From Spirochaetaceae bacterium (GTDB lineage: Bacteria; Spirochaetota; Spirochaetia; DSM-2461): DNA of 64,000 bases. Shown here piece by piece: positions 15,430 through 22,326 of this stretch; within the stretch, counting starts at the first letter, position 1; every line of letters starts with the position of its first letter. The position numbers and the translations under genes are program-made. The notes under the pieces are model-generated. The model was not told the DNA's origin, ran no database searches, and was given only the letters and a program-made list of their open reading frames with translations. The stretch is from positions 32,001 through 96,000 of the forward strand of contig JAOPTT010000009.1 of NCBI GenBank assembly GCA_051531975.1, written 5' to 3'.

Positions 15430-16523
15430 TTTTTAAGGCTATTGAATATTGTAATTCAAATTGTATTTATTGCAGCGTTATAGAGAAAGATGAAGGCCAT
15501 ACTATGAGTTATGAAAGGCTTGAAACTGTTTTTATACGTATGAACCAATATTTGGAAGAACTTCCAGACGAGATAATCGATTTTACTTGGCATGGAGGGG
15601 AAGCAACCTTATTAGGTCCTGAATATTTTAGAAAAGCTTTAGAGTTTCAGAATGTTCACTGCAAAAAGACTAAGAATAGGATTAAGCATATAATACAATC
15701 TAATTTAACATGTATTACCCAAGAAATTATTGATGTTCTTAAAGACCTAGGTATAAACTCAATAGGATCAAGTTATGATCCTATTGAGGGAATTAGAGGG
15801 ATTGGTAAAAATAGAGACTCTAAATTATATAAAGAATTGTTTTTTAAAGGTGTTGATTTAGTTGAGAAAAATGGAATGACTTGGGGGATTATTTATGTTG
15901 TTCATAGAAGATCTTTAGAAGACCCCGTAGGAATTTTTAACCATTTGTCAAACTTAAATTTAGGCACATCTCCTGTTTTTAACTGTATATATTTGTACGA
16001 GGATGATAAACATCATTTAAGTATTACCCCCGAAGAGTTTGCGGACTTTTTAGGAGCTCTTGTCCCTTTATATATGGAAAATCCTGAAAAATATAAATCT
16101 ATACGACCACTAAGCATGTTTATTGACTCTATAAAAGAAAAAACACCATTAGGTTGTGATTATGCAGGAAATTGTGCAAATTATTGGCTATATATTGGAC
16201 CTACTGGTGAACTATCCCACTGTGGTAGAGCAGGTGATCAAAGAATAATAAGTTATGGAAATATCGACGATACTAGCCTAAAGGAAGCACTAAATCATCC
16301 TTACCGGAAAAAAATACTTGCTAGACAGACGTATTTGGTTGATAATGATTGTAAAGGCTGTAAATATTGGGGCATATGCCATGGTGGATGTCCAGTGGAT
16401 GCATTGTCTATGACTGGTGACATTATGAATAAAGCTATGTCATGCGAAATGGTAAAAAGATTAATGTCAAAATATATTGAACCCTTAGTTGATAAAGAAG
16501 TGCAATTTTATCCTAATAATTAA
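15417..16523 (+). CDS. Radical SAM/SPASM peptide or protein maturase (anSME-like)
   Basis: CNSNCIYC, WHGGEATL, QSN, CDYAGNC...IGPTG..SHC, CKGCKYWGICHGGCP...C. Confidence 0.93.
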   Translation: MAVIIFKAIEYCNSNCIYCSVIEKDEGHTMSYERLETVFIRMNQYLEELPDEIIDFTWHGGEATLLGPEYFRKALEFQNVHCKKTKNRIKHIIQSNLTCITQEIIDVLKDLGINSIGSSYDPIEGIRGIGKNRDSKLYKELFFKGVDLVEKNGMTWGIIYVVHRRSLEDPVGIFNHLSNLNLGTSPVFNCIYLYEDDKHHLSITPEEFADFLGALVPLYMENPEKYKSIRPLSMFIDSIKEKTPLGCDYAGNCANYWLYIGPTGELSHCGRAGDQRIISYGNIDDTSLKEALNHPYRKKILARQTYLVDNDCKGCKYWGICHGGCPVDALSMTGDIMNKAMSCEMVKRLMSKYIEPLVDKEVQFYPNN

Positions 16524-16553
16524 AGTTAGGTTTTATATAAAGAGGTGTGAATT

Positions 16554-16760
16554 ATGAATGAGAAAGAAATCATGGAAACTGGATCAGAGAGCAAAGTAAT
16601 TTCTAGAAAGGAAGCTTTAAAAAGAATTTCTAAGATCGGTTTAGGTATTGGTGCTGCAGTTGTTGCTACAAGTTGTGATCTTTATTATTACGACTATACT
16701 TATAGTGACTATAGTGATTATTATTACAGCTACTATGTTTATACAAACTACTACTGGTAA
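16554..16760 (+). CDS. Putative RiPP precursor: Tat-like lipoprotein signal plus Tyr-rich core
   Basis: RBS AGAGGTG; SRKEALK Tat-like motif, hydrophobic GLGIGAAVVA, lipobox-like ATS-C41; core DLYYYDYTYSDYSDYYYSYYVYTNYYW. Confidence 0.85.
   Translation: MNEKEIMETGSESKVISRKEALKRISKIGLGIGAAVVATSCDLYYYDYTYSDYSDYYYSYYVYTNYYW
16701..16718 (+). repeat. 9-nt tandem repeat encoding YSD-YSD
   Basis: TATAGTGAC TATAGTGAT. Confidence 0.8.
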
Positions 16761-16763
16761 TCT

Positions 16764-16970
16764 ATGCTGAGTTTTGTAGAGATTGCAATAGTAGGTGGAG
16801 CGATTCTTTTAATTTTTGGATCAACGAAACTTCCAAAATTGGGCCGAACAATGGGTCAAAGTTTGACAGAGTTTAAAAAAGGACTTAAAGAGGGTATGAC
16901 AGATACTAATGTTACTGATGAAAAGAAAGATGAAGAAGTAGCTGATAAGTCTGATATTGTGAATGAGTAA
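16764..16970 (+). CDS. tatA: Twin-arginine translocase subunit TatA
   Basis: EI.IV...LLIFG..KLP.LGR.MG..L.EFKKG signature; acidic tail. Confidence 0.95.
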   Translation: MLSFVEIAIVGGAILLIFGSTKLPKLGRTMGQSLTEFKKGLKEGMTDTNVTDEKKDEEVADKSDIVNE

Positions 16971-17673
16971 TACATTAACATTTTTTGAACACGTCAAAGA
17001 ACTTAGAAATAAATTAGGAATCTCTTCCATTGTATTTGTAGTGGCATCTGTGTTTGGTTACATAATTTTTCCATCTGTAATTAGTTATTTTAATAACTTT
17101 TTAGATGTAGGACTTCATGTAACCAAATTATATGAGGGCTTTTTTATGCGAGTGCAGGTTTCTCTTTATATTGGTCTTATATTTTTTATACCAGTTTTTT
17201 TATTAAATCTTTTGTTATTTATAGTCCCAGGTTTTGAGAAAGGTGATAAAGCAGTATTTGTTTCATTATTTCTTCTCAGTATCATTTTGTATGTAGTTGC
17301 TATACTTTCAGTTAGTATCTTTTTACCTATCACTATAAATTTTCTTCAATCAAAATCTTTTATTCCTGATACTCTTAATAAGATATTTTCATATGGTGAA
17401 TTTATAGATTTCTTTTTTACTTTTTTGTTAGCATTTTGTGTATCATTACAGTTTCCAGTTGTATTATTGGTTTTGCTGTATTTCAAAATATTAAAAACTG
17501 CTTGGTTAACTAAGTTTATTCCATACTTTGTTCCTGTTGCATTATTGTTGTCAGCAATAATGACTCAAGATATACTTTCTCAATTTTTGGTTGCAGTACC
17601 ACTGTTTGTTTTATATTTATTGTGTATCTTAGCTGCAAAGAAGTTAAAATGGGGTGTTGATGATATTTCTTGA
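16963..17673 (+). CDS. tatC: Twin-arginine translocase subunit TatC
   Basis: FFEHVKELR, EGF, FIVPG, QFPV, TQD..SQ..VAVP..LY; six TM helices. Confidence 0.92.
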   Translation: MSNTLTFFEHVKELRNKLGISSIVFVVASVFGYIIFPSVISYFNNFLDVGLHVTKLYEGFFMRVQVSLYIGLIFFIPVFLLNLLLFIVPGFEKGDKAVFVSLFLLSIILYVVAILSVSIFLPITINFLQSKSFIPDTLNKIFSYGEFIDFFFTFLLAFCVSLQFPVVLLVLLYFKILKTAWLTKFIPYFVPVALLLSAIMTQDILSQFLVAVPLFVLYLLCILAAKKLKWGVDDIS

Positions 17674-19288
17674 AATAATTGCAATTCTTTTTATTATTTT
17701 TATTATTAATCCACAAAACTCTGTTTCTATGTTACGGAAAGCTGGTGTTTTAGTTGGAAAATTAAGAAAAGTAATAAATCAATTAAAATCTTATTCTAAA
17801 GACTTTAATATAACTAATCTTGATAATGAAGTTGCAGGTAATAAAAATAGTGGGGTAAATGTTAATAATGGAAAAGCTGACCATTCAACCACAGTAACAA
17901 AGATGGTTCTTTTAGATGTTATTGAAGCTAGTTATAGTATTAACATGACAAAAAATATAATTCCTTTTCTATTTGATAACAATCCAGATATTGTAAGTAA
18001 AACTATTACTATCTTAAAAAAGGATCCTCTGTTTTCATTTGAAAAGAGAGATTCATTTAGTAACTGGAATGTTGAAAAATTAGTAAGGAATCCCAATTCA
18101 GAATATTTTAATAAGGTTTTTGATCCTAATAGAGTTGCTGAAGTATCAGGAGCTATCTTTAGTATTCCTAAGGAATCTTTTGAGAAACATTATAAAAATC
18201 TCGCTGACTTTAACGGTATAGATAATTTAAACATGAAAACAATATTTTCTAAAGATAAAAGCTCATTTTTTGGTGAGTTTAAAAACTTAAGAAAAAAATA
18301 TATCGCTAAGTGCTATCCTCCACAGGGATTTGTATCACCTAGTTATAGATGTAATCTAGATTGTTCCTATTGTTTTTCTAAAGACTTATTGCAAAAATTT
18401 AATAACGATATGACAGTTGAACAATTTACATTGTATTTAAAAAAGCTTAAGGCTGACTATAATATTAAGGAAATTGGATTTTTTGGTGGTGAACCAACTT
18501 ATTTCAAAAAATTAAATGAGTTTATAGATGTAGTTGAAAATGAAAAACTATTTTGTAATATTGCCTCAAATGGTATTGTTGAAAATCAAATCTGGGAAAA
18601 AATTGTTTCTAGAGGTAGTCTAGCAATGATTACATTTCATATTGAGGATAATGATTTTTATACTAACGATACCCACTTACCTAATATTATATCTAATATT
18701 AAAAGTGCTAACCAATTTAAAAAACAGATAACTTTTAGATATAATATCGTAGATAGTGAGAGAACTGATTGGAGTTTTCTAAATAAATATATTGATTTAG
18801 TTTCACAGTTTAGGTTTAGTTTTGCTATTCCATTTCCTTCTGGTAATGGTGAAAACGAATATGTATCATTAGATGAGTTAAATAAATTTGGAAAAACAAT
18901 TGTTTCTATGATCGATCATATAGATTTTTATAGTAGAAATAGACCATATGAAATTGTATTAGCTAAACCTATACCTCTATGTGTTTTCTCTGAAAAAGAA
19001 TATTTGAGAATTTTAGAAAAAGTCAGATACAAAAATGTATGTGAAATTGATAAAAATAATAATACAAATAATCTTATAATTAATCCTGATGGTTCATACC
19101 AGTCATGTGTAGGTTTAAATAAAGACAAGTACATATTCAATGACTTTTTAGGTCAAGAGTCTCTTCCTAGCAGTTATCATATGAATATTGATAGAGTTAT
19201 AAATAAACCAATGATGGATGACTGTAAAAAGTGTTATCTATTTAATATCGGAGTCTGCCAAGGGGCTTGTTATGCCTACACCCAGTAA
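17654..19288 (+). CDS. TatB-like N-terminal domain fused to radical SAM/SPASM enzyme
   Basis: N-terminus FLEIIAILFIIFIINPQ...LRKAG.LVGKLRK (TM helix, Pro hinge, amphipathic helix); CNLDCSYC, FFGGEP, PLC, IINPDG...SC, CKKC...CQGAC. Start may be ATG 17660. Confidence 0.8.
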   Translation: MLMIFLEIIAILFIIFIINPQNSVSMLRKAGVLVGKLRKVINQLKSYSKDFNITNLDNEVAGNKNSGVNVNNGKADHSTTVTKMVLLDVIEASYSINMTKNIIPFLFDNNPDIVSKTITILKKDPLFSFEKRDSFSNWNVEKLVRNPNSEYFNKVFDPNRVAEVSGAIFSIPKESFEKHYKNLADFNGIDNLNMKTIFSKDKSSFFGEFKNLRKKYIAKCYPPQGFVSPSYRCNLDCSYCFSKDLLQKFNNDMTVEQFTLYLKKLKADYNIKEIGFFGGEPTYFKKLNEFIDVVENEKLFCNIASNGIVENQIWEKIVSRGSLAMITFHIEDNDFYTNDTHLPNIISNIKSANQFKKQITFRYNIVDSERTDWSFLNKYIDLVSQFRFSFAIPFPSGNGENEYVSLDELNKFGKTIVSMIDHIDFYSRNRPYEIVLAKPIPLCVFSEKEYLRILEKVRYKNVCEIDKNNNTNNLIINPDGSYQSCVGLNKDKYIFNDFLGQESLPSSYHMNIDRVINKPMMDDCKKCYLFNIGVCQGACYAYTQ

Positions 19289-20195
19289 GGTTGGAGTCAA
19301 TTACATAATATTCAATGAACTCTGGGACGATGTTTTAGAAAATGAAAGTAATCAACCTATTAAGACAATTGAGCTAAATAAGTTAAAAACTATATATTTT
19401 GACTATTTATCAAATGCTTTAAAAAACCTACAACAATCACATACAAATATCGCAGTAACTGTTTGGCTAATTGAGATTTCTGAATCAGGTATAAAAGAAG
19501 TCGATCTTAGAGAGCAATTATTTAATACATTACCATACGTAAGAATTTATACAATTCCATTCATGAAAATAAGAAATTATATTTCAGCTGCAAAGAGACT
19601 AGCAAAAGGATTATATAGATCTCCTAATGAATTACACGAATTTTTAATTCTACATATAATAAAACTATCAACAACTCCTTATATTGCTATTTTAGACACT
19701 GATAATCTATTTCTAAGGCAAGATGCTTTGAATATTATTTTCCAATCATTAGAAGAAGATAAAGATAAATGGATAGGTTGTATCATGGAAAAAGGTATTA
19801 AGAGACCTTATAACGATGGATTCACTCAAATGAGAGAGAGAATGCATAGTGTAGCCCTTTTTATTATTAAAGATCGATTTAATAAAGGATTTACTGAGAC
19901 AACAAATTGGCGGATAGATACTTTTGATAAAGTTAAATTAATACAAAATGATGAATGCAGAGATTATTATCATAAGTATAAATTCTTCGATACTTTGGCG
20001 TTGTTAACCGATCTATTTAAATATAACTTTGGTGTAAATAGAATAAAAGAGTTAAACAAAGAATTAAACTCCCAAGAGTTTGAAAAATTAACCATAGTTA
20101 ACGATCTTTTTGTTCATAGTAAATATTTGCATGGAATAGATTATATTTTTGAAAACTTAAAAGATAATAAATTCATTTCTTCAATTCAAAGGTAA
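19272..20195 (+). CDS. Putative GT-A fold glycosyltransferase or nucleotidyl-sugar transferase
   Basis: TPYIAILDTDNLFL DxD motif after a beta strand; late His (FVHSKY); ATG overlaps end of previous gene. Confidence 0.5.
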   Translation: MPTPSKVGVNYIIFNELWDDVLENESNQPIKTIELNKLKTIYFDYLSNALKNLQQSHTNIAVTVWLIEISESGIKEVDLREQLFNTLPYVRIYTIPFMKIRNYISAAKRLAKGLYRSPNELHEFLILHIIKLSTTPYIAILDTDNLFLRQDALNIIFQSLEEDKDKWIGCIMEKGIKRPYNDGFTQMRERMHSVALFIIKDRFNKGFTETTNWRIDTFDKVKLIQNDECRDYYHKYKFFDTLALLTDLFKYNFGVNRIKELNKELNSQEFEKLTIVNDLFVHSKYLHGIDYIFENLKDNKFISSIQR

Positions 20196-20255: not shown

Positions 20256-20303
20256 ATCGTTTTAATATATTAAATACTAATCTTATCTTATATGGAGGTC
20301 GCA

Positions 20304-21536
20304 ATGTCAATGTATAAAATAGTATTAGTAATAATTAGTATTTCACTTCTATTTTCATGTACAGAGCAAGAGTATTTAGAATTAACGGGTGATTATTCTA
20401 TTGGAACATCAGTTTTTGAATTAGAAGACAAATCAAGGTTAGAATATTATTCTGAGGAAGTATCTGAAAATAGAACAATTGTAATCAGAGCATGGTATCC
20501 AATTGAAGCCAAATCGGGTAAAACACTTCCACAATATAATGGTAAGGGAGTAGCAAAAGAATTTCAAAAACTTTTTGGTATACCTTCCTTTTTAATGAAA
20601 GATAATATTGGAAGAGCCTATACTGATGGAAGCCCTTTAAAAGGTAAATATCCTGTAGTCATTTTTAATCATGGTTTTAGTTCATGGGAATCTCAAAATG
20701 CTACAACAATGGAAGAAATAAGTTCCAACGGTTATGTTGTGCTAAGTATAAATCATCCATACGAAAGCCTTTTTACTCAATTTAATAATATGGATAGTGT
20801 TAAATTCTCTATACCTGGTTATAAAGATAAGCTTAAAGCTATGAATAAAGATATTGATGATATAACTAACGAGTTAATACAAATGGTTAAAACTATTAAA
20901 GAAGCAACTACTGAGAAGTTATATAAAGAAGCTGTTATTAAAATTACTCAATCAAAGGCTTACAAACCTGTTTTCCCATCTTTAAAATTGTGGATTGAAG
21001 ATACAGCTTTTTTAATCTCATCTCTAAATGATATTAATTTAAGTAATATAATCGACAGTGATAATATTGCAGTTATAGGTCACTCTTTTGGAGGACTTGT
21101 ATCTAGTGAACTTTCAATGTTAGGAATTAGTGGTATTAAGTGTGGCATAAGTTATGATGGACCTGTTCTATTTGATAATATGAATAAAGATATTTCTCTG
21201 AAAACCCCATTTCTATTTTTAGCAAGTACCAATGCTAAGTATGGAAAAACTGTTGTTGATCTGTCAGGTCAAAATGATTTTTTAACAACAAAAACTGATA
21301 AAAAAGTTATTTCAGGCTCAATAAATGGTAGTGGGCATTATAATTTTTCAGATATGGGTTATGTCTCTTTTCTTAAAAGAACATCGATGTTAGGTCCTAT
21401 TGATGGAGTTAAGTCGTTACAAATTATGAATGGTATAACACTGTCTTATTTAGACCATCATTTAAAAGGTGAAGTTGATCCAACCAATTCTTGGTTAAAA
21501 ATTTACCCTGAATGGAATGTAAGCAGATCTAACTAA
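20304..21536 (+). CDS. Alpha/beta-hydrolase lipoprotein (PAF-acetylhydrolase/dienelactone hydrolase-like)
   Basis: Lipobox LLFSC; WYP, YPVVIFNHG, GHSFGG, HYNFSD. Confidence 0.88.
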   Translation: MSMYKIVLVIISISLLFSCTEQEYLELTGDYSIGTSVFELEDKSRLEYYSEEVSENRTIVIRAWYPIEAKSGKTLPQYNGKGVAKEFQKLFGIPSFLMKDNIGRAYTDGSPLKGKYPVVIFNHGFSSWESQNATTMEEISSNGYVVLSINHPYESLFTQFNNMDSVKFSIPGYKDKLKAMNKDIDDITNELIQMVKTIKEATTEKLYKEAVIKITQSKAYKPVFPSLKLWIEDTAFLISSLNDINLSNIIDSDNIAVIGHSFGGLVSSELSMLGISGIKCGISYDGPVLFDNMNKDISLKTPFLFLASTNAKYGKTVVDLSGQNDFLTTKTDKKVISGSINGSGHYNFSDMGYVSFLKRTSMLGPIDGVKSLQIMNGITLSYLDHHLKGEVDPTNSWLKIYPEWNVSRSN

Positions 21537-22326
21537 GACCAACTAGTTCAAATCTACTATTAACACCAGTTTTTTTAAAAATGTTTGTTATATGTGTTTT
21601 GACTGTGGGTATTGATATAAATAGTTCTTCGCTAATTTGTCTGTTTGATTTTCCTTTTAAAATATAATGTACAACCTCTTCCTCTCTGGGGGAGAGGCCT
21701 TCAATTTTTTTTGTGTTAATGTTATGTGTAATACTCGTATAATAAAGAATACAGTATAAAAGATATATGAATGGATATAGACGAATAGGTAAGGTATCTT
21801 GAGATATTATATCAAAAGCTATTAATGGAAGAAGAATCATATCATATTTTGAACTCTGTTTTTCAAACTTGGTTTTGTTCTTTTTAATTACACTACCAAA
21901 CATCGTAAATGCAAATAGAATAACAATAAATATCCGTATATAATTTACATGTGGAGATAATATTGTAATAAAATTATTTTCAATTTTCATAACAAATAAG
22001 ATAGATATTAAAATTATCAAACCACTAAAAATGTAAAATGCCAAAATTGGTTTTAAATATTTATGGTGCTTATATTGTAATTTAACAAGGCTTAACATAA
22101 ATAATATGACCATAATAGAAGTTGAATAATTTAGAATATAAATTATTGAAGGGTGAATTGAACTTATATTAATATTTAGATAAAAAATTATTAGTGTTAA
22201 TAATTGAAGTATTGTAAAAGTACAAAAGACCCAGAAATATTCTGAGTTAAGATTTTTTAATTTTTTTAGTATAAGTACACCTGCAACAATTATCGATGCA
22301 AGGTATAGGATGTAAATATGAATCAT
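21529..22326 (-). CDS. Membrane-bound LuxR-type transcriptional regulator
   Basis: Multiple TM helices plus LSPREEEV...GKSNRQIS.ELFIS..TVKTH...IFKK HTH. Confidence 0.9.
   Translation of the reverse strand: MIHIYILYLASIIVAGVLILKKLKNLNSEYFWVFCTFTILQLLTLIIFYLNINISSIHPSIIYILNYSTSIMVILFMLSLVKLQYKHHKYLKPILAFYIFSGLIILISILFVMKIENNFITILSPHVNYIRIFIVILFAFTMFGSVIKKNKTKFEKQSSKYDMILLPLIAFDIISQDTLPIRLYPFIYLLYCILYYTSITHNINTKKIEGLSPREEEVVHYILKGKSNRQISEELFISIPTVKTHITNIFKKTGVNSRFELVGLS

Follow-up and report, generated by a model that had tools for sequence, protein, structure and literature searches.

A TatB-family module fused to a radical SAM/SPASM-like enzyme in a Tat-linked peptide gene cluster of a Spirochaetaceae bacterium

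How can a gene that directly follows tatC start like the twin-arginine translocation (Tat) subunit TatB and end as a radical S-adenosylmethionine (SAM) enzyme? This question is raised by the gene termed tatB::rSAM3, which is located on a stretch of 64,000 nucleotides (referred to as the window) of a Spirochaetaceae bacterium (assembly GCA_051531975.1, contig JAOPTT010000009.1, positions 32,001–96,000 of the forward strand). The presence of a conserved TatB-family fusion within a Tat-linked gene cluster for a peptide that is produced by ribosomes and modified after translation (RiPP) is considered highly probable. Furthermore, the gene probably encodes a true TatB paralogue, the cytoplasmic C-terminus of which was extended by fusion to a helical domain followed by a peptide-modifying enzyme of the radical SAM/SPASM-like type, as part of a Tat-linked module serving a single substrate; this interpretation is proposed with some reserve.

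Apparent fusions of this kind can arise when separate genes, here tatB and a radical SAM gene, are joined by an assembly error, by a frameshift or by the loss of a stop codon. The database copy of the fusion begins with the ATG at position 17660, 14 bases ahead of the tatC stop codon, and hence overlaps the end of tatC. This ATG most likely represents the start of the gene, which then encodes 542 amino acids (aa) with the N-terminal sequence MIFLEIIAILFIIFIINPQNSVSMLRKAGVLVGKLRKV; all residue numbers of the fusion protein are counted from it. When 1.84 billion cluster representatives were searched with a profile built from five fused proteins, 160 matches at E ≤ 1e-30 were obtained. Among the best 150 of these 160 representatives, 12 align from profile position 1–11 and, with P0046 and P0006 added, at least 14 sequences carry the N-terminal TatB module. 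By inspection, the 14 fused sequences begin with MF.(L/I)G..E, followed by a hydrophobic stretch and by P..(I/V)P..(F/L)R.(I/L)G; they are 25–45% identical in this region, derive from different assemblies and are each encoded in one open frame. For two of the fused members, the names given in IMG combine ‘radical SAM’ with ‘Sec-independent protein translocase’. Moreover, a second assembly of one public run holding the window contains a contig of 25,158 bases which spans positions 16500–19300 without differences or gaps. Since this run may represent the source sample, the second assembly tests the assembler rather than the biology. An artefactual origin is extremely improbable given that one open frame is kept in 14 diverse sequences and that the second assembly shows neither differences nor indels, and conservation of the fusion among homologues, which the first-pass annotation had left to be checked together with the reads, is well supported by these comparisons. 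A long N-terminal extension in L028 was dismissed by eye as a spurious open frame in DNA of high guanine and cytosine content.

The N-terminus had initially been described as having the layout of TatB, with a glutamate, a hydrophobic helix, a proline hinge and an amphipathic helix. The sequence is as described, AlphaFold2 predicted N-terminal helices at residues 2–16 and 18–48, and the orthologues match TatB models. Taken alone, the N-terminus from the window matches the NCBIfam TatB model TIGR01410 weakly (E 0.017–0.018, 15.6 bits). For all five fused N-termini analyzed, TIGR01410 is the best Tat-family match (E 2.3e-7, 1.3e-6, 9.3e-4, 0.017 and 0.064); other TatB models rank next, and TatA models score worse or are absent. 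A profile of these five N-termini retrieved TatB chains first from the PDB sequences (9e02_F with E 1.8e-5, 9e03_B with 0.0032 and Escherichia coli TatB 2mi2 with 0.81), and no TatA chain was found among the matches of this search. TatB identity is therefore derived from the orthologues, which match clearly, and not from the window sequence, which is weak by itself. The spiralin_repeat model NF038028 (E 0.0002–0.0004) outranks TatB on the window N-terminus; this match spans the helix and extends into the K/N-rich linker, and it is probably compositional and a trap for automatic annotation.

G040, which harbors a fused gene (L006), also encodes a second, ordinary Tat operon with a free-standing TatB of 84 aa. 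The latter protein shares 45% identity (E 3e-11) with the fused N-terminus of G040 and was aligned by hhalign to the profile of fused N-termini with 98.5% probability (E 2.3e-15), compared to only 82.7% for the window’s own TatA. The residues Glu5, Pro18, Arg26, Lys27 and Gly29 are invariant in all six fused N-termini considered. The hinge reads NP, DP, AP or SP instead of GP; absence of the hinge glycine is a trait of the lineage, as the free-standing TatB of G040 has KP at this position. Cryo-electron microscopy results presented in passages of Deme et al. (2026, PMC13323110) describe the complex as a (TatBC)3 trimer, in which TatB Glu8 is bound by TatC Thr208 and Gln215 (E. coli numbering). 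The Thr and Gln residues of this TatB-binding polar cluster (T..D..SQ motif) are kept in all five TatC proteins encoded directly upstream of a fusion. Based on these sequence comparisons, assignment of the N-terminus to the TatB family, TatB-like rather than TatA-like, is well supported. The ordinary Tat operon of G040 (L022 = G040:C3, 1225–2381, minus strand) has the order tatC, tatB (84 aa) and tatA (60 aa); since tatB sits after tatC in this spirochaetal operon, fusion of tatB to a downstream gene is easy to picture.

Regarding the remainder of the protein, the AlphaFold2 model has a mean predicted local distance difference test (pLDDT) value of 76.7. Values below 50 were obtained over residues 34–75, indicating a disordered linker, followed by a confidently helical part (residues ~72–220) and the radical SAM barrel. 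Basic residues come after the transmembrane (TM) helix, and the enzyme is therefore predicted to be cytoplasmic; the corresponding N-out/C-in topology fits an iron-sulfur enzyme. The segment between linker and barrel, which had been regarded as an unassigned region of about 130 aa, is actually a conserved helical domain of ~150 aa, and alignments revealed it in fused and unfused members alike. Since the domain also occurs in unfused relatives, the TatB module replaced no domain inside the fusion protein. AlphaFold2 modeled the domain with helices only (pLDDT 85.2). It corresponds to no Pfam family, and a Foldseek search against the PDB returned no match at E ≤ 0.001. The best hit of a wide VIA-align search was to helical repeats with Z 6.7, a range that is common for helical models according to the tool, and a feature search of the Atlas yielded nothing usable. 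As modeled, the domain is not visibly a RiPP recognition element (RRE), and a helical-repeat surface binding an extended Tyr-rich peptide is plausible.

The description of a complete radical SAM enzyme was borne out, namely by the motifs CNLDCSYC and GGEP and by a match to PF04055 over residues 227–332 (E 2.9e-12, 47.5 bits, cut-off 29.5). In a Foldseek search with the radical SAM part, SuiB (5v1s) was the closest structure (E 1.1e-8), and SkfB, anSME and viperin were also retrieved. The SPASM part of the description applies with a qualification. Cys 441, 461, 483, 522, 525, 533 and 537 are invariant in 11 aligned homologues, the last block having the spacing CX2CX7CX3C. The SPASM model TIGR04085 scored 24.1 bits on the fusion protein (E 3.6e-5), just under its cut-off of 27, and PF13186 did not match the protein, which is why the domain is referred to as SPASM-like. 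Within the family, all catalytic motifs are preserved in 11 of the 14 fused proteins. The other three, P0028 (from G009; L011 = G009:C2), P0035 and P0046, lost both CxxxCxxC and GGEP, compared to none of the ten unfused members. P0028 retains SPASM-like cysteines, and the G009 cluster is otherwise intact and encodes a precursor with a twin-arginine (RR) signal. As CxxxCxxC and GGEP are missing, the fused domain cannot act as a maturase in these three members, where its role must be a non-catalytic one. The earlier proposal that the enzyme introduces the last modification before export found no backing: nothing points to such a position in the pathway, and the motif losses apply here as well.

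To place the fusion in its genetic context, 31 loci including the window were annotated with hidden Markov models (HMMs) built from the cluster’s own proteins. Five loci derive from genome contigs, 25 are metagenomic and one is from G009; the locus L007, which stems from a distant relative in a different phylum, was not included. A TatC match was present in the locus of all six fused genes (window, L005, L006, L011 from G009, L024 and L027), and in five of them (all except L027) the fused gene abuts or overlaps the tatC stop codon. Of the unfused relatives, 14 have 2.7 kb or more of sequence upstream, and no TatA or TatC match was found in any of these; the other 11 loci were too short to tell. 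In a tree of 19 TatC sequences, the five tatC genes located upstream of and adjacent to the fusion cluster together (UFboot 85, SH-aLRT 99), and a branch with 99/97 support separates this group from 12 further tatC genes, which stem from G040 and from the same family. According to this tree, the TatC of the window is nearer to those of distant metagenomic spirochaetes possessing the same cluster than to those of its own family. This pattern fits a module that was inherited or transferred as a unit, and the cluster is probably part of such a mobile module. As an outlier on a long branch, the tatC of L027 groups with the long-branch tatC of G012:C18 and not with the cluster-associated genes. In L027 (8818–9846), tatA and the very divergent tatC are both located downstream of the fusion, the latter on the opposite strand.

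Furthermore, the genome as a whole was screened for Tat components and substrates. It comprises 5.46 Mb, is 98.5% complete and encodes one tatC and one tatA, the latter (16764–16970) being the only PF02416 match; hence, the initial observation that the operon lacks a separate tatB extends to the entire genome. No Tat signal was obtained at E ≤ 10 in a six-frame search of the genome with TIGR01409. In genomes with ordinary Tat systems (G008, G039 and G040), at least one over-cut-off TIGR01409 signal in a full-size protein was found in each. In G009, the only tatC of which is that of the cluster, TIGR01409 detected no signal. A regular-expression scan of the window’s genome gave 23 loose RR matches, none of which appeared Tat-like by eye, and the sole open reading frame (ORF) fitting [ST]R[RK]x[FLIVMA][LIVMF][KRQ] followed by an uncharged stretch is the precursor gene of the cluster. 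Within the order (38 genomes, one family), tatC is present in 12 genomes and the rSAM3 gene in three. Moreover, tatC is absent from all three other genomes of the window’s genus; in one of these three, G023 (81% complete), a contig begins with the rSAM3 gene. In this genome, the Tat system appears to serve the single 68-aa precursor, and the dedication of the Tat module to one substrate is well supported as an apparent property of this genome.

The small ORF that follows rSAM2 in all seven Tat-type loci encodes a Tyr-rich core preceded by a [ST]R[RK][DEQK]AL[KE]R motif and by a hydrophobic stretch with a Cys that is invariant. The signal is of the RR type in five loci (L005, L006, L011, L024 and L027; [ST]RR[DEQ]AL[KE]R), and RK is present in the window and in L004. 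The Cys residue ends the hydrophobic stretch (ATSC, SSC, TSC, SNC or VDC), which would fit a lipoprotein signal; cleavage by signal peptidase I just before the Cys is equally possible. The cores are 27–55 residues long and contain, besides Tyr, hardly anything other than Asp, Ser and Asn (YYSDYYSNYYSDYY is an example), and no Pfam or NCBIfam model matches the Tyr-rich core. In sister clusters, which harbor relatives of rSAM1 and rSAM3, the Tyr-rich peptides have a leader-like N-terminus (...KKH..(V/I)(Q/S)GS...) and are accompanied by a PqqD gene (PF05402 E 3.1e-18 in L025). A jackhmmer search with the L025 PqqD identified PqqD-like ORFs in 13 loci, all of them outside the Tat-signal loci, and in none of the seven Tat-signal loci. 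The earlier suggestion that the TatBC receptor replaces an RRE is thus in agreement with the comparison between clusters, from which it appears that Tat signal and TatBC may stand in for the RRE–leader pair, but not with a domain exchange, as no domain was swapped within the fusion protein. Moreover, the 299-aa protein encoded between rSAM1 and rSAM2 could hide a very divergent RRE or recognition domain. At the sister locus L025 (1–8735), with similar genes in L032 and L034–L047, PqqD is encoded together with unfused relatives of rSAM3 and rSAM1 and with short Tyr-rich precursors lacking an export signal. L025 also encodes a transglutaminase-like protein (PF13471), an HPr-kinase-like protein, a nucleotidyltransferase (PF14907) and a family-9 glycosyltransferase, and resembles lasso-peptide gene sets.

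Based on genome interpretation, the following sequence of events is proposed for the cluster. The TatB-like helix would intercalate between TatC subunits via its invariant Glu and the conserved Thr and Gln residues of TatC, so that as many as three enzyme domains would sit at the cytoplasmic side of the (TatBC)3 receptor. The precursor would dock through its Tat signal, which would take the role played by leader and PqqD-type RRE in the sister clusters. The tethered domain would then modify the Tyr-rich core or, in members without the catalytic cysteines, may only hold or check it, and rSAM1 and rSAM2 might cross-link the core earlier or simultaneously. TatA would subsequently let the cross-linked peptide cross the membrane; such a peptide is expected to be a poor Sec substrate, and Tat would be used because a cross-linked core could not thread through Sec. 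Finally, the precursor Cys may be lipidated, or the signal may be cleaved just before it. The chances that maturation or proofreading takes place on the receptor in this manner are judged to be even. A more far-reaching version assumes that three fused enzymes beneath (TatBC)3 form a cytoplasmic chamber for maturation and checking, that the Tat signal doubles as the RiPP leader in place of the PqqD-type recognition of sister clusters, that only a correctly cross-linked core is released for transport via TatA, and that the whole Tat pathway here and in G009 exists solely for one lipid-anchored peptide cross-linked by radical SAM enzymes. This version is tentative and rather doubtful; the linker of ~25 residues would fit a flexible tether and not a rigid chamber.

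Several observations weigh against an enzyme that works as part of a TatB-type receptor. None of the fused N-termini reaches the curated TatB cut-off of 56.5 bits (best value 31.2, window 15.6). PF02416 matches only one of five, and does so below its own cut-off. Searches of Pfam at E ≤ 10 returned no relevant family for the N-terminal 70–75 residues of the window protein nor for residues 1–227 or 71–227, so that the Pfam comparison suggested by the first-pass annotation gave no support, in contrast to the TatA/TatB profile comparisons (TIGR01410 and TatB chain 9e02), which favored TatB. The window precursor carries RK instead of RR (SRKEALKR) and is not matched by TIGR01409. That model is insensitive, since it missed the RR precursor of G009 and scored the precursors of L005 (16.3 bits, cut-off 16.7) and L006 below its cut-off. 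A single clade of all six Tat-locus tatC genes was rejected (approximately unbiased test, p-AU 0.006), which is due to L027. Furthermore, the enzyme of this cluster is unfused in L004, where Tat genes are lacking in the vicinity, and the L004 genome has only one TatA-family match; the fusion is therefore not obligatory. Since CxxxCxxC and GGEP are absent from three of the 14 fused proteins, catalysis at the receptor cannot be the general function of the fusion. Passages of Deme et al. (2026, PMC13323110) also state that substrates contact the Tat core complex only via the signal peptide and that TatB beyond the amphipathic helix is disordered or mobile in solved complexes. On the latter ground, the fused domain would not be fixed in position.

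One rival explanation is that the TatB-derived helix now serves as an anchor only, keeping the enzyme at the membrane near its lipoprotein-type substrate without taking the place of TatB in the receptor, and that TatA and TatC act as a two-component translocase. Translocases of this type, consisting of TatA and TatC, occur in many Gram-positive bacteria. The weak score of the window N-terminus against TatB models, the hinge without glycine and the L004 genome, which appears to manage with an unfused enzyme and one TatA-family gene, are in line with this explanation. It is nevertheless fairly unlikely: a plain anchor would not need five invariant TatB positions including the Glu that pairs with Thr/Gln of TatC, the hinge glycine is likewise missing from the free-standing TatB of G040, and the fusion is strictly linked to tatC (six of six fused loci versus none of 14 unfused ones, with the two genes in direct contact in five loci). 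Alternatively, the fused domain might mainly represent a built-in Tat proofreading factor or holdase, functionally analogous to the chaperones TorD, DmsD and NapD, which bind signal peptides. The domain would bind the Tyr-rich core and release it for transport only after cross-linking by rSAM1 and rSAM2, and its own chemistry would be dispensable. This would account for the loss of both catalytic motifs in P0028, P0035 and P0046 but in no unfused member, and for the persistence of SPASM-like cysteines in P0028 within an otherwise intact cluster with an RR precursor. As the large majority of fused members (11 of 14) keep all catalytic motifs and the unfused family members look like ordinary maturases in PqqD-containing clusters, a mainly non-enzymatic role is quite unlikely. 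The TatB paralogue extended by a peptide-modifying enzyme is retained as the preferred interpretation.

Compared with TatB of known TatABC systems (E. coli; N. salsuginis and M. xanthus in PDB 9e02 and 9e03), the fusion shares the TM helix with the conserved Glu, the hinge Pro, the amphipathic helix and the gene position beside tatC. It differs from ordinary TatB, which ends in a short disordered tail, by continuing for ~470 residues with a helical domain and a radical SAM enzyme, by lacking the hinge Gly and by its sub-cut-off TatB score. A substrate-dedicated Tat translocase is represented by the TatAd–TatCd pair of Bacillus subtilis, which is encoded with its substrate PhoD. The present cluster resembles this pair in that a Tat translocase is encoded beside, and apparently serves, one substrate; unlike TatAd–TatCd, which has no TatB and no fused enzyme and exports a folded enzyme, it features a TatB–enzyme fusion and a small modified peptide. 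The redox enzyme maturation proteins (REMPs) TorD, DmsD and NapD are soluble, separate and non-enzymatic Tat proofreading chaperones. As with REMPs, a cytoplasmic factor would retain the Tat substrate as long as its maturation is unfinished, but no homology exists and the candidate module for checking would be linked to the receptor covalently.

Regarding the enzymes, tatB::rSAM3 has in common with SuiB (5v1s), SkfB and PqqE acting with PqqD the catalytic fold, CxxxCxxC, auxiliary-cluster cysteines and a small peptide substrate encoded nearby. In contrast to these systems, no RRE is detectable in the fusion or the cluster, an export signal replaces the leader, and a membrane tether via a translocase subunit is predicted. 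For rSAM2, DarE and DynA are the best NCBIfam matches, and the aromatic-rich core suggests aromatic cross-links. Scores are far under the cut-offs for DynA (NF041298, E 4.5e-40, 137.7 bits, cut-off 450) and DarE (NF038005, E 2.6e-38, 131.9 bits, cut-off 650). Hence, judged by its sequence, rSAM2 is related to the dynobactin and darobactin maturases but lies outside both families, as the equivalog cut-offs are not reached. The rSAM2 system also differs from darobactin and dynobactin by its long, Tyr-rich core and by predicted export via Tat and not via an ABC transporter. NisB, NisC and NisT constitute a membrane-associated, non-covalent lanthipeptide synthetase–transporter complex which depends on a leader peptide and exports through an ABC transporter. 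Shared with that complex is the idea of placing the enzymes of maturation at the exporter and channeling modification into export; neither Tat nor a gene fusion is used there.

Each part of the system belongs to a known kind; what is new is their combination. The literature searched (8.1 million PMC papers and 0.36 million preprints) presents Tat subunits as small stand-alone membrane proteins and RiPP enzymes as finding their substrates by means of leader and RRE; the searches revealed no description of a fusion of a Tat subunit to an enzyme, of a radical SAM RiPP with a Tat signal or of a Tyr-rich family of the type observed here. If the proposed interpretation is true, the fusion would be a naturally occurring example of a protein-export receptor that contains an enzyme, and would represent a new substrate-recognition logic for RiPPs. 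If, in addition, the chamber assumption is true, a Tat translocase with enzymatic quality control inside its receptor would be at hand. The cluster would offer a tractable system for the sensing of cargo state by Tat, the long-standing ‘proofreading’ question, in which the catalytically dead fused variants provide a natural control separating binding from chemistry. Moreover, it may open a route to a new class of Tyr-rich peptides that are probably cross-linked and lipid-anchored.

Coordinates of the cluster genes, the domains of the fusion protein and the Tyr-rich precursors of related loci are compiled in Table 1.

Table 1. Features of the tatB::rSAM3 cluster in the window and precursor genes of related loci.
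Feature	Position	Strand	Remarks
rSAM1, radical SAM protein, 336 aa	13563..14573	+	First gene of the cluster; C-terminal Cys-rich SPASM-like tail; PF04055 E 5.7e-15
Conserved protein, 299 aa	14530..15429	+	Cys-rich C-terminus CSYCSSWRFCRS...C; no assigned family
rSAM2, radical SAM/SPASM protein, 368 aa	15417..16523	+	Closest to the aromatic cross-linking maturases DynA and DarE
Precursor peptide, 68 aa	16554..16760	+	Tat-type signal, ATSC Cys, Tyr-rich core DLYYYDYTYSDYSDYYYSYYVYTNYYW
tatA, 68 aa	16764..16970	+	PF02416 E 5.7e-14
tatC, 236 aa	16963..17673	+	PF00902 E 2.4e-33; HxxELR motif kept
tatB::rSAM3, fusion gene	17654..19288	+	Open frame from GTG, 544 aa; 542 aa from ATG 17660
TatB-like module, residues 1-48	17660..17803	+	TM helix with Glu5, hinge Pro18, amphipathic helix with R26, K27 and G29
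Low-complexity linker, residues 49-71	17804..17872	+	Length and sequence differ among homologues; gapped, unconserved columns
Conserved all-helical domain, residues 72-228	17873..18343	+	Motif DPxFxFEKR; loosely HEAT/ARM-like
Radical SAM core, residues 229-435	18344..18964	+	CNLDCSYC, GGEP
SPASM-like C-terminal domain, residues 436-542, and stop codon	18965..19288	+	Seven invariant Cys
Downstream conserved protein, ~307 aa	19272..20195	+	Counted from ATG 19272; no Pfam match
Tyr-rich precursor, window	16554-16760		
Tyr-rich precursor, L005	3128-3382		
Tyr-rich precursor, L006	1660-1902		
Tyr-rich precursor, L024	1570-1851		
Tyr-rich precursor, L027	5364-5816		
Tyr-rich precursor, L011 (G009)			

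The eight genes of the cluster are arranged head to tail on the plus strand between 13.5 and 20.2 kb of the window, and several of them overlap by a few bases. The module has the gene order rSAM1, 299-aa protein, DynA-like rSAM2, precursor, tatA, tatC and tatB::rSAM3. Neither the precursor nor the fusion nor the two proteins lacking a family are covered by a model in NCBIfam release 20, and none of the stretch was found in one RNA run from the same sample. The first gene, rSAM1, scored under the cut-off of TIGR04085 (E 3.3e-4, 21 bits) and was observed in identical gene order in L004, L005, L011 and L027. In the same four loci, the seed-built HMM located the 299-aa protein between rSAM1 and rSAM2, and fragments of it were detected at the contig starts of L006 and L024; scans of Pfam and NCBIfam with this protein returned no match. 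The SPASM domain of rSAM2 was recognized by PF13186 (E 2.6e-5), and tatA is assigned by TIGR01411 (tatAE, 52.9 bits) versus TIGR01410 (tatB, 14.3 bits).

The ~307-aa protein encoded downstream of the fusion also follows the rSAM3 gene in L003, L028 and L029. Most metagenomic relatives possess a YcaO-like gene directly after the fusion (L005 5865–6929, L006 4682–5812, and also L024, L027 and L030), with scores under the cut-offs of both TIGR03266 (E 2.1e-13) and TIGR00702 (E 4.5e-9); in the window, L003, L028 and L029, its place is taken by the ~307-aa protein, which is unrelated to it. Two further genes adjoin the cluster at 20292–22326 of the window. One encodes an alpha/beta hydrolase resembling PAF-acetylhydrolase (PF03403, E 2.2e-25), the N-terminus of which is signal- or lipoprotein-like. 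The other, located on the minus strand, encodes a multi-pass membrane protein with a terminal LuxR/GerE helix-turn-helix domain (PF00196, E 2.3e-18), which may be a regulator of the cluster.

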